Shown in pieces: positions 1-30,543 of a stretch of DNA of 64,000 bases. The first letter of the stretch is position 1, and the number at the start of each line of letters is the position of its first letter. The translations under genes and the position numbers were made by a program. A model generated the notes under the pieces. That model did no database searches and was not told the DNA's origin. It was given only the letters and a program-made list of their open reading frames with translations. This DNA comes from Ilumatobacteraceae bacterium (GTDB lineage: Bacteria; Actinomycetota; Acidimicrobiia; Acidimicrobiales; Ilumatobacteraceae), in contig JANMTV010000051.1 of NCBI GenBank assembly GCA_031390905.1, forward strand, positions 2,881 through 66,880, read 5' to 3'.

Positions 1-683
1 GACGACCGAGTGAAGGTCGAGAGGTACATGAAGTTGACGCGGTTGTCACCGTCGAACCAACCCATCAATCCATTCAGCGGGGTCTCGCCACCGCGGGCGA
101 TCCACCAGGTGATGACCAGCACGAAACCGACCACGCCGAACAACGTCTTGGCGATCCGCGTCGGACGCCACCCCGTGGCGGCCAACGCCACGAACGCCAA
201 CGGCCACATCACATACCACTGCTCTTCGACCGCCAGGCTCCACAGATGTCGCAACAGCGGAGGATCGCCAGGCTGGAAGTAGGGGACGTCGCCGACAATC
301 GTGCCCCAGTTGGCGAAGTAGAAGATCGACCAAGGAAGATCACGCCGCATCTGCGATGTCTGCTCAGCCGACCCGAATAACGCCGCCCAGATAGCCACCG
401 CCAGCAGCACCGCAAATAGAGCCGGGAACAGCCGTCTCGCCCGACGCAGCCAGAACTGCGGCAGCGAGACCCGCCCCGATTTCTCGCGCTCCTCGATCAG
501 CAGCGTGGTGATCAGGAAGCCTGACACGACAAAGAACACCTCGACACCGAGGAACCCGCCGTGAATCCAGGTGAACCCTCCGTGATAGAGCATCACGGCG
601 ATCACAGAGATCGCCCGTAACCCATCGAGACCCGGTTGTTGCCCCATCCCCGGTCGGGATGAGGTGGGGACCGGTCGCGTCAT
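1..683 (-). CDS. Acyltransferase-3 family membrane O-acyltransferase (OafA/OatA-like), runs off left edge
   Basis: Not in ORF track. Manual translation from ATG at 683: GLDGLRAISVIAVMLYH, GFLGVEVFFVVSGFLIT, FWLRRARRLFP, RHLWSLAVEEQWY, all family motifs. Confidence 0.92.
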   Translation of the reverse strand, partial: MTRPVPTSSRPGMGQQPGLDGLRAISVIAVMLYHGGFTWIHGGFLGVEVFFVVSGFLITTLLIEEREKSGRVSLPQFWLRRARRLFPALFAVLLAVAIWAALFGSAEQTSQMRRDLPWSIFYFANWGTIVGDVPYFQPGDPPLLRHLWSLAVEEQWYVMWPLAFVALAATGWRPTRIAKTLFGVVGFVLVITWWIARGGETPLNGLMGWFDGDNRVNFMYLSTFTRS

Positions 684-720
684 AGCGTCAGCCAGCCTAC
701 GACCTAGGGTTCGTCACGTG

Positions 721-1145
721 ATGTTCACCTCAGACGGCCACTCCTCGGCGCGGCAGGGCGCCCTCACCGGCATCGGAAACACGCCGATCGTTCGACTGTC
801 GAGCATCACCACATCCGACGACGCCGAGGTGTGGGTCAAACTCGAAGCGGCGAATCCGACCGGTTCCTACAAGGACCGGATGGCGCTTGCAATGATCGAG
901 GCGGCCGAGCGAGACGGTCGCCTGCAGCCTGGCCAGACCGTCGTCGAGTACACCGGCGGATCTACGGGAAGTTCGTTGGCGTTGGTGTGCGCAATCAAGG
1001 GCTACCCGCTTCGGATCGTGTCGTCGAACGCCTTCGCTGGAGAAAAGCTGGCAACGATGAGCGCCTTCGGGCCTAACTCGAAATCGTCGACAGCCCAGAG
1101 GGGATCACCCCGTCGCTGATTCCTCGGATGATGGAGCGAGCCAGC
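721..1145 (+). pseudogene. Truncated, frameshifted PLP-dependent cysteine synthase (CysK/CBS family)
   Basis: GNTPIVRL, KLEAANPTGSYKDRMA (PLP lysine), EYTGGSTG; frame break at ~1069-1076, homology resumes in another frame (LEIVDSPEGITPSLIPRMMERA) and is lost ~25 bp before the cysS stop. Confidence 0.8.
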
Positions 1146-1171
1146 CGAGTAGCCCGCTGGGTGAGCGAGTC

Positions 1172-2527
1172 TCAGCGGCGAACGGCAGTGCCGTCTTTGG
1201 TGGTTTCGACGGTCCATCCGGCCGATTGAAGGTCGGCACGAATCGCATCAGCAGCCGCGAAATCTTTGGCCGCGCGTGCGGTGTCGAGAGCTGCAGCCTG
1301 AGCCTCGACGTCGGCAGGGATCTCGCCGGATGCCTTCAGTTCGAGACCGAACGCACCGCAAATCTCGACAGCGGCGGCGACCAACGGACCCGCCGCGGCG
1401 TCACCTGCGTCGATCGCCGCGTTGGCTTGGCGAACGGTGTCGAACAGCAGTGCCGTGGCTTTCGGGGTGTCGAGGTCATCATCCATCGCTGCCCGAAACG
1501 CATCGATCACACCACCATCGGGTCGCGCTGCATCAACACGTGACGCTCGAGCGGCGAACGAGTCGAGCCCGTCCAACGCGTTGACCGCTGCGTCGATCGT
1601 GTCCTGCGAGATCCTGATCTGACTGCGGTAATGCGACTGAAGCAGAACCATCCGATACGCCCGCTGGTCATAGATCGCGATCAGGTCGAGCAGGTTTGCG
1701 ACGTTGCCGAGCGATTTCGACATCTTCTCGCCTTCGGCATCGACGATGAAGCCGTGGTGCATCCAATGATTGGCGAACGTTTTTCCGAGCGCGACTGCCT
1801 GGGCGCGCTCGTTCTCGTGATGCGGGAATCGCAAATACTGACCACCTCAATGCAGATCGAAACCCTCGCCAAGCAGGTCGAGGCTCATCACCACACATTC
1901 ACTATGCCAGCCGGGGCGTCCGTCCCCCCATGGTGAGGGCCACGATGGTTCGCCTGGCTTCGAGAACTTCCAGAGCGCGAAGTCGGACGGATGACGCTTT
2001 TGGTCGGCACCGAACACGTCGCGGTCGCCGCCCCCGGCGCGCATCTCGTCGAGCGATTGATGGGCCAGCAATCCGTAACCGTCGACCGATTCGACCGACA
2101 GGTAGACACCGTCATCCGTCATATAGGCGTGGTCAGCCGAGATCAGTTGACCGATCATCTCGACCATCTCTTCGACGTACTCGGTGGCGCGGGGGACATC
2201 GTCGGGGCGCTTGACGTTGATTCCGTCCATCGCCTCGAACCAAACCCGCTCGCACTTGGCGGTGATGTCCTGCCACGGGCGCCCTTCGCGCTCGGCGCGC
2301 TCCATGATCTTGTCTTCGATGTCGGTGACATTCGACACGAGCCGCACTTCGAGTCCGGACCATTCGAGGTAACGCCGCAGGATGTCGTAGACCAGCGTTG
2401 CCCGCCCGTGACCCAGATGCGGGGGCCCATACACGGTCGGCCCACACAGGTAGATGCTGACCTTCCCGGGTTCGCGCAACGCCAGCTCACGTACCTCTCG
2501 GGTCGCCGTGTCATACAAGTTCAGCAC
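1172..2527 (-). CDS. cysS: Cysteine--tRNA ligase with one in-frame TGA at 1847-1849
   Basis: ORFs 1847..2527 and 1172..1834 are in the same frame: CAT TGA GGT GGT CAG TAT TTG CGA TTC CCG CAT CAC = H*GGQYLRFPHH. Motifs LCGPTVY, HLGH, GRPGWHSEC, FPHHENE, KMSKS present. Confidence 0.93.
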
Positions 2528-5412: not shown

Positions 5413-5498
5413 GAGACTGACTTTCGGTGAGCGTCGAAGCGGAGCGGAGACGGCGAACTCGGCAGGCGAGTGCCAACGAGCCGATTGAGAACGGTCAT
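5409..5498 (-). CDS. Repeat-encoded mini-ORF 2 (29 aa, [29 protein letters not shown])
   Basis: TGA (5411-5409) overlaps ilvN ATG (5412-5410) as ATGA. Translation is inferred. Confidence 0.55.
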
Positions 5499-24053: not shown

Positions 24054-24169
24054 GCAGCTTGATCGGCACGTCGCGTAACGAACTTGAAGGGTTCTTAACG
24101 ACCGCTTGCCAGTCGAGGTCGGACGAAATCGATGGCCAGAACACCGTGATAATCCCTATCCTCGCTTGC

Positions 24170-28107: not shown

Positions 28108-29397
28108 TCAGGGTCGGTGCCGAACGACTACGCAGTCCTGGTGGCTTGTGAGGCTGAGGTTGAACGGGGCGATCTCGGCACGGATGTCGTCGACGCTGTC
28201 GCAGCGCCAGGTCGATCGCGCTGTGTGTTCTGCGACCACGTTCACACCGTCGAGAACCTTGTAGATCAGCGTCCACGCCATCGTGCGATCATCGACAGGC
28301 TCGCCCTGCTGCCAACCCTCATAGGTGTAGTGACCAACCTGGAGTTGTCGGTACCGCGTGAGTGGCACCGACACCGCCCGTTCCGGCGGAAGCACGCCAA
28401 TCACTGCAGGCGCACCGACCGGCATTTGCTCGGCAATGAACCGCCAGAGTCGCGACCGTTCCTGATCGTTGAGATGTCCGAACGCCGCAGAAGCAACGAG
28501 AGCGCACGCCCCAACAGGCAGCGGTGCATCGGCAAAAGATCGAGGCACGACGGTGGTCATGGCACGCAGCGAGTCGTCCATCGACAATCGAGCGTGCAGC
28601 GCTGTCCGCATAGCTTTCGACGGTTCGATGGCGATCACCTGGCCGCCCGTAACAGCCGCTTGCAAGTAGGCCAGACTGACACCGCTTCCCGTACCGACAT
28701 CGACAATCGGACCGTGGGCAGGGTCAGCATCGTCCAACAGGTCGAGCAGTAGAAGACCGAATGACTCCCACATACCGGTGGCCAGCAGATCGTAGAACTC
28801 AGCCGTGGCCTCGCCGTACGGGTCATCGGACGCAGGCGTTGCACGAGTATCGGAACGGCGTGGTTCACTTGCGGAAGCGTCGAACGGTGCCAAGAGGTGG
28901 ACCCAGCGGGTGTCCTTCTGACCGGGCTGACGGTCAAGTTGTAACGTCAGCGGTTGACCACGGCCGGCAAGTGTCGACAGGACGTCGCCGACATCATCGG
29001 TCGAATCGAATCGGTGTTGGCGCTCAGTCCGACCCTTCAGCTCACCGACGGTTTGCGGGCCGCGGAGCATCAACACCGAGAGCACCGCAGTCTCGGCAGC
29101 GTTGAGCGTGAGCGCTTCTGGGACAATGTGCCGGTACTTGGTCGCCCTGTTCGAAGTGCTGTGTACCGTGCGAGTCAGACCGCGTCCACGCAGCGATGAG
29201 AGAGCCGTCTCAATCTCAAAGTCTGCGTATGTCACGACTGGGTCGCGACTCGTCGATTGGTTGCAGGCATTCCGCAAACTGTTGACGGTGAGCGGATACG
29301 TCTCCGGAACGGTCGCCTCCTTTTCGATCAGGCAGCCGAGTACGCGCACCTCCTCGGGAGTGAGGTCACCGACCTGAGCTGACGTTGCACTGTCCAC
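28108..29397 (-). CDS. YceH/DUF480 domain fused to class I SAM-dependent methyltransferase
   Basis: N-term RVLGCLIEKEATVPETYPLTVNSLRNACNQSTSRDPV, LMLRGPQTVGELKGR; C-term VDVGTGSG, IAIEPS. Confidence 0.85.
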   Translation of the reverse strand: MDSATSAQVGDLTPEEVRVLGCLIEKEATVPETYPLTVNSLRNACNQSTSRDPVVTYADFEIETALSSLRGRGLTRTVHSTSNRATKYRHIVPEALTLNAAETAVLSVLMLRGPQTVGELKGRTERQHRFDSTDDVGDVLSTLAGRGQPLTLQLDRQPGQKDTRWVHLLAPFDASASEPRRSDTRATPASDDPYGEATAEFYDLLATGMWESFGLLLLDLLDDADPAHGPIVDVGTGSGVSLAYLQAAVTGGQVIAIEPSKAMRTALHARLSMDDSLRAMTTVVPRSFADAPLPVGACALVASAAFGHLNDQERSRLWRFIAEQMPVGAPAVIGVLPPERAVSVPLTRYRQLQVGHYTYEGWQQGEPVDDRTMAWTLIYKVLDGVNVVAEHTARSTWRCDSVDDIRAEIAPFNLSLTSHQDCVVVRHRP

Positions 29398-29495
29398 GCC
29401 GCGAGTGTTGCACCTCGGTTACACCATTCCGTCGACGCTCTTCGGGGTCACCGCACCATGCAAGTCCATGCATCCGGTGGGTAAGGTCGAGATTC

Positions 29496-30543
29496 GTGAA
29501 ATCCCCCAAGGACTTCTTCAAACCATTGGCAGTTGGCGCGCCCGAACCGCTCCGCGAGATTCCGTTTCGGCCGAGCAGGATGATCCATTTCTTCCCGTCA
29601 TCGAACGAGAAGATGATCGCCAAACTGCCTGAGCTGGTGCCCAGGGTCGACGTGCTGCTCGCCAATTTGGAAGATGGGGTTCCGGCCGCCGAAAAACAGG
29701 CGGCAAGGGTAGGGCTCGTGCGTGTCGCACAAACCGTCGAGTTTGGTGACACACAGTTCTGGACACGCGTCAACAGCCTCGATTCGCCATGGGGACTCGA
29801 CGATCTGACCGCCGCCGTGCTGGAGGCGGGCATATCTCGACGTCGTGATGATCCCAAAGGTCGAAGGCGCCGAAGACATTCACTACGTCGACCGGTTGCT
29901 GGCGCAGCTGGAAGCCAAGGCAGGTCTCCGCAGGCCGATCATGGTCCACGCCATCTTGGAGACGGCTCGAGGCGTCGCCAATCTCGAGCAAATCTGCGTC
30001 GCCTCGCCACGCATGCAGGGCCTATCGCTCGGACCAGCAGACCTCGCCGCCAACCGTCGGATGAAGACAACACGTGTAGGCGGCGGACACCCCGACTACA
30101 TCGTGCGCGCCGACCCGAATCCCGATGATGCCGCGGCGCCACGCAACACAGCACAACAGGACCTGTGGCACTACACCATCGCTCGCATGGTCGACGCCTG
30201 CGTCAGCGCAGGCATACTCCCGTTCTACGGGCCATTCGGCGACATCGCCGACACGACCGCGTGCGAAGACCAGTTCCGAAATGCCTACCTGCTCGGTTGC
30301 GTCGGCGCGTGGTCATTGCACCCGTCACAGATCGACATCGCCCGCCGAGTGTTCTCACCGCGGCCTTCTGAGGTCGCCCATGCCCAGCGAGTGATCGATG
30401 CGATGGGTGACGGAACCGGCGCCATCATGCTCGACGGCAAGATGGAAGATGACGCCTCGTGCAAGCAGTGCCAGGTCGTCGTCAACCTTGCTCGACAGTT
30501 GGCCGCCCGCGACCCCGAGCTCGCCGCCACCTACGGTTTCTGA
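29496..30543 (+). pseudogene. Malyl-CoA lyase-like (HpcH/CitE family) CoA-ester lyase with frameshift at ~29832
   Basis: SRMIHFFP, NLEDGVP, WTRVNSLDSPW in one frame; [32 protein letters not shown] in another. Could be a sequencing error. Confidence 0.75.

Follow-up and report, generated by a model that had tools for sequence, protein, structure and literature searches.

An in-frame TGA in the cysS gene of an Ilumatobacteraceae assembly is very probably a one-off lesion and not a programmed feature

The window analysed here is a 64-kb stretch (positions 2881-66880) of C42, which at 67 kb (67,013 nt) is the second longest contig of a 4.26-Mb assembly of 404 contigs with a GC content of 62-63%. 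It carries cysS, the gene for cysteine--tRNA ligase (CysRS), whose frame runs from 2527 down to 1175 and closes with a terminal TGA at 1174-1172, and, convergent with it, the remnant of a gene of the PLP cysteine synthase family (Table 1). The first-pass annotation had drawn attention to an in-frame UGA in cysS that was not accompanied by a frameshift, and our reading of the frame agrees: there is one interruption in a single frame, the TGA at codon 227, with the flanking residues reading G F D L H * G G Q Y L R F P H H E N E.

Table 1. Coordinates of cysS, its lesions and the other features discussed. Positions are those of the window unless a contig is named; G024 is the nearest relative.
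Feature	Position	Strand	Remark
cysS (cysteine--tRNA ligase)	1172..2527	-	451 codons plus terminal TGA; interrupted at codon 227
In-frame TGA, codon 227 of cysS	1847..1849	-	Cys (TGC) in G024 and in most genus members
TAT (Tyr), codon 231 of cysS	1835..1837	-	replaces Asp of the GGxDL motif
Codon 233 of cysS, CGT to CGA	1829..1831	-	synonymous; third transversion of the 19-nt cluster
7-bp stem GAGCGCG/CGCGCTC with 10-nt loop	1787..1810	-	in codons for ENERAQAVALG; not a SECIS
cysK/cysM-like remnant (PLP cysteine synthase family)	664..1147	+	convergent with cysS; compared with the intact G024 copy
HpcH/CitE-like lyase gene, frameshifted	29364-30540, lesion 29832-29836	+	GAAAAC in G024, ATAT in the window
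GH38 (alpha-mannosidase-like) gene	contig C307, about 24100-24110	-	2 nt deleted from a CACA repeat, by comparison with G024
fdhA-like molybdopterin oxidoreductase, Sec gene	contig C334, TGA at 4367-4365	-	reads SCNRT-U-HAPSV

Apart from this interruption the gene has the hallmarks of a canonical bacterial CysRS (E. coli CysS, PDB 1LI5/1U0B; TIGR00435). When the translation is read through with X at the stop it scores 407 bits against the NCBIfam cysS profile TIGR00435 (cut-off 340) and covers profile positions 1-465 of 466, the genomic DNA scores 406.5 bits against the same profile, and the alignment with E. coli CysRS (1LI5) takes in residues 2-451, end to end. Furthermore, the HIGH-like, KMSKS and zinc-ligand motifs, described earlier as retained, were all located in the frame and in the 1LI5 alignment. 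The class I motifs are HLGH at residues 37-40 and KMSKS at 268-272, while C28, C211, H236 and E240 align to the zinc ligands of the E. coli enzyme, which we take to be C28, C209, H234 and E238. The anticodon-binding domain is likewise encoded, and the database homologues of the product are CysRS of Ilumatobacteraceae/Acidimicrobiia.

The gene departs from the canonical enzyme in two respects. Owing to the TGA at codon 227, no unbroken frame encodes both the catalytic and the anticodon-binding domains, and the invariant Asp of the H-x-G-G-x-D-L motif, equivalent to Asp229 of E. coli, is absent and its place taken by Tyr231. Translation of cysS as written would end after 226 residues, before KMSKS and the anticodon-binding domain. 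Readthrough of the stop would still leave the GGxDL nucleotide-binding motif without its invariant Asp, and the Asp231Tyr change would be expected to inactivate CysRS.

Both positions were followed through 26 orthologues, 19 of them from other genus members and 7 from members of the order. Codon 227 is a sense codon in all 26 (Cys, Gly or Thr); it is Cys in G024, the nearest relative ("MAG: Ilumatobacteraceae bacterium"), and in 16 of the 18 other genus members, every time as TGC, and Gly or Thr in the remainder. Gly also occupies the position in E. coli, Coxiella and part of the family. Codon 231 is Asp throughout (26/26, GAT in G024), as it is in the E. coli and Coxiella CysRS structures. 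The first-pass annotation had placed the UGA at a Cys position that is Gly in many other bacteria and had seen that the conserved Asp four codons on was changed to TAT, and the alignment bears out both statements.

A wider search returned the same picture. No internal stop in cysS was found among 137 further genomes of the family (150 drawn, of which 137 had a cysS match), and the "TGA inside" cysS that the search reported for the genome G020 is merely its terminal stop. One of the 137, the unpublished genome G128, enters the analysis through this count alone. Of 18 short CysRS fragments examined from the protein collection, none terminates at FDLH. In the metagenome collection there was no match to either of two DNA patterns, one species-specific and the other degenerate but with TGA obligatory at codon 227. 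In the protein collection the exact 226-aa N-terminal fragment is recorded from this contig alone. The TGA at codon 227 is therefore private to this assembly and absent from the approximately 175 related genomes examined; all close relatives have a sense codon, which the first-pass annotation had named as evidence against recoding. Frameshifted cysS genes occur on long contigs of other Ilumatobacteraceae MAGs (e.g., P0004, P0006, P0089), so that a broken cysS is not unusual in such assemblies. As a separate observation, the 90% cluster to which the 226-aa fragment belongs (P0122 cluster) is mixed and includes unrelated acyltransferase-like fragments; it is bridged by an 818-aa member that resembles a fusion or a gene-calling artefact on another contig.

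A second gene might in principle supply the lost function. The assembly, which is 96% complete, contains one full-length cysS, and a search of it revealed no second full-length copy, about 4% of the genome being unassembled; SepRS was not found in the genome either. The second hit, a paralogue on C135, scores best on MshC (412 bits) and covers positions 1-322 of the 466 positions of the cysS profile, that is, the catalytic part. It has no anticodon-binding domain and is MshC-like, and a shorter second cysS homologue of the same sort stands beside the full cysS in most of the relatives searched. Back-up by a second cysS or by SepRS was accordingly rejected. Moreover, G024 has a single cysS, and the locus is syntenic and orthologous to it. 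On the written sequence the organism would be left with no CysRS. As this is the sole cysS found, and as CysRS is essential in bacteria without a SepRS route, the sequence as written can hardly be the working allele of a living population. The outcome of the check for a second intact cysS, suggested in the first-pass annotation, hence tips the balance towards an artefact or else an allele that is dead or carried by a minority.

Comparison with G024 places the damage within a narrow patch. The two cysS genes share 95.9% nucleotide identity, and their 55 differences are mainly synonymous. Three transversions fall within 19 nt, at CDS positions 681 (TGC to TGA, a single C-to-A), 691 (GAT to TAT, a G-to-T) and 699 (CGT to CGA), all of them changes to A or T. 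Apart from codons 227 and 231, this genome has no unique residue at an invariant column, as is also the case for the other aligned genomes. A long period of decay is not compatible with this, and cysS would seem to have been under normal constraint until very recently, or to be so still, in which case the patch would not be biological. Gene conversion from a paralogue was considered as a source and rejected: the genome contains no second copy of the 46-nt patch, and at the corresponding place the mshC-like gene has a different sequence.

One way in which the UGA could be a functional codon is that SelB and tRNA-Sec insert selenocysteine (Sec) there and CysRS is a selenoprotein, a reading that we regard as very improbable. 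The genome does carry the machinery, with selA and selB on C260, selD on C131 and two tRNA-Sec genes; the search for it had been proposed earlier, and with these genes all present, absence of machinery is no argument against Sec. In addition, the UGA aligns with the Cys of most genus members, and a genuine Sec gene, encoding the fdhA-like oxidoreductase, is found on C334. A UGA at the Cys position of homologues in a genome with SelA, SelB, SelD and tRNA-Sec is what cysS has in common with bacterial selenoprotein genes such as fdhF/fdhA. However, it has neither a SECIS at the proper distance nor a UGA common to its orthologues, the TGA being found in no relative (26 aligned orthologues and 137 family genomes). 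The position is Gly in many CysRS, so that the Cys is neither conserved nor a catalytic residue such as Sec commonly replaces, and the second change, Asp231Tyr, would disable the enzyme regardless. No publication describing a Sec-containing CysRS was found in the literature searched, and none dealing with Asp229 of the E. coli enzyme. This case illustrates that a lone UGA at a Cys position cannot be read as Sec on the strength of the machinery alone.

The case against a SECIS can be made within this genome, with its own fdhA-like site as the local reference. There, a SECIS-like hairpin of classical bacterial appearance begins about 15 nt after the UGA, its GGUCU loop closed by the 6-bp stem GUGGUC/GGCCAC; the equivalent zone of cysS has a weak 4-bp hairpin only. 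The first-pass annotation had pointed to a 7-bp stem some 36 nt downstream of the UGA in cysS, and this stem exists, its first base lying 36 nt after the UGA and its loop starting from about +43. Under the rules of bSECISearch the apical loop lies roughly 16-37 nt from the UGA. Moreover, the cysS stem is base-for-base identical in G024, which bears TGC, and recurs in several other TGC-bearing relatives, and an Rfam search with it gave no match. It is best read as a by-product of a conserved peptide in GC-rich DNA. With regard to the tRNA-Sec genes, the two are different tRNA-Sec(UCA) genes, located on C47 (c370-462) and C96 (c3088-3183). C47, a contig of 1.2 kb, also carries a 3' fragment of selD and a selB C-terminal-like fragment. 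This contig may be a contaminant, come from a variant strain or hold a second sel locus.

Of the stop codons UGA is the leakiest, and low-level near-cognate readthrough by Cys-tRNA or Trp-tRNA would be attractive in principle in the enzyme that charges tRNA-Cys, where it would form an autoregulatory loop on CysRS synthesis. We consider this highly unlikely. A regulatory device should be conserved, whereas neither the stop nor its context is conserved in related genomes as programmed readthrough would have it: the TGA is missing from all of the approximately 175 genomes, including the closest relative, G024, at 96% identity. The product of readthrough would also have Tyr for the invariant Asp231, and no suppressor tRNA was found in the genome besides tRNA-Sec. 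A tRNA-Sec-like suppressor charging Cys was rejected as well, both tRNA-Sec genes having the usual G73 and not the Cys-type U73.

Similarly, TGA might have taken on a new meaning in this organism, such as Gly or Trp, and codon 227 is indeed Gly in part of the family. This reading is already refuted by stop-codon usage, and its probability is practically nil. TGA ends 892 of 1278 long coding ORFs genome-wide (70%), 18 of 24 on the contig, and cysS itself, in keeping with the earlier remark that UGA is an ordinary stop in the window. No other in-frame TGA was seen in real coding frames in the approximately 620 kb compared with G024; the only other example found is the Sec codon in the C334 fdhA-like gene, which lies outside that comparison.

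Three findings contradict recoding in any of these forms, be it Sec, readthrough or reassignment: the TGA is not conserved, a SECIS is missing, and Asp231Tyr accompanies the stop. For the UGA to be real, fixed and decoded, as Sec or by leak as Cys or Trp, enough CysRS would have to be made and the enzyme would have to tolerate Tyr at the Asp of GGxDL, a combination to which we give next to no credence. If it were true, CysRS would be the first selenoprotein among aminoacyl-tRNA synthetases or would be governed by an autoregulatory readthrough loop, and either would be a remarkable recoding in the enzyme charging tRNA-Cys; nothing found supports that. The view of the first-pass annotation that an error is more parsimonious than Sec or readthrough is upheld on the same three grounds.

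Small, messy lesions are also present elsewhere in the assembly, in the cysK-like remnant (1068-1147), the lyase gene (29832-29836) and the GH38-like gene on C307, and they count for an explanation of the TGA by an error or a null allele. In the cysK-like remnant a run of Gs at about 1068-1072 is one G short, which shifts the frame, and the gene lacks about 522 nt at 1147/1148, where the junction has a 4-nt GCCG microhomology. Its counterpart in G024 is an intact gene of 329 aa, which scores 254.7 bits against TIGR01136, below the cut-off of that profile. The HpcH/CitE-like lyase gene is intact in G024 too, and outside the lesion the two proteins are 97-99% identical, so that the lesion must be very young or an error.

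The quality of the assembly was assessed by comparing approximately 620-670 kb between G024 and this genome. Outside the window (~620 kb) there is one convincing frameshift, the deletion on C307, which splits the ~1055-aa frame of the GH38-like gene; the other flagged stops all lie upstream of a likely start or in antisense frames. A generally error-ridden assembly was rejected on this basis. Damaged genes thus number three in the 64-kb window vs one in ~620 kb elsewhere, and this enrichment may point to a local coverage or polishing problem, or to real decay in the sampled lineage.

Taken together, the TGA is very probably (probability roughly 0.9) a one-off lesion of this assembly rather than a programmed feature, arising either as a consensus error or as a null allele of recent date. 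It is comparable to the sporadic nonsense lesions of MAGs, being a single-base TGC-to-TGA change in a conserved single-copy essential gene of one assembly whose relatives have a sense codon. It differs from them in that two more transversions lie within 19 nt, the invariant Asp is destroyed and the neighbouring gene is damaged.

As to the origin of the lesion, an error of consensus, assembly or polishing appears the likeliest, at slightly better than even odds, and is favoured over a null allele on the ground that a lethal allele should not dominate a population. Against an error, three clustered substitution errors would be unusual in a well-covered short-read consensus, C42 is probably well covered, being the second longest contig, the ~522-nt deletion, with its microhomology, resembles a genuine deletion more than an error of base calling, and damaged genes appear to be enriched in the window. 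The lesion might instead be a real and recent loss-of-function allele, produced by a clustered multi-nucleotide mutation in a lineage or sub-population and followed by the assembler as a variant; viable cells would then have the allele with TGC, or another cysS would be located in the ~4% of the genome that is unassembled. We hold this to be possible but somewhat improbable. The several independent lesions of the cysK-like neighbour, including its microhomology-flanked deletion, are like those of real decay; the contig is long; the three changes in 19 nt are all towards A or T, as mutation bias predicts; and a completeness of 96% leaves room for a missing copy. However, CysRS is essential and a second copy was not found in the assembly, the locus is syntenic with the single cysS of G024, the remainder of cysS has no sign of relaxed constraint, and an allele that is lethal should not have become the dominant one.

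In annotation, the gene should be labelled cysS, with a flag that its internal stop is probably a sequence error or marks a pseudo-allele, and should be neither split into two proteins nor called a selenoprotein. As a side observation, at 5477-5498 in the spacer between ilvB and ilvN the window has approximately 107 nt fewer than G024 between short direct repeats; this is a difference in the copy number of a MIRU-like repeat.
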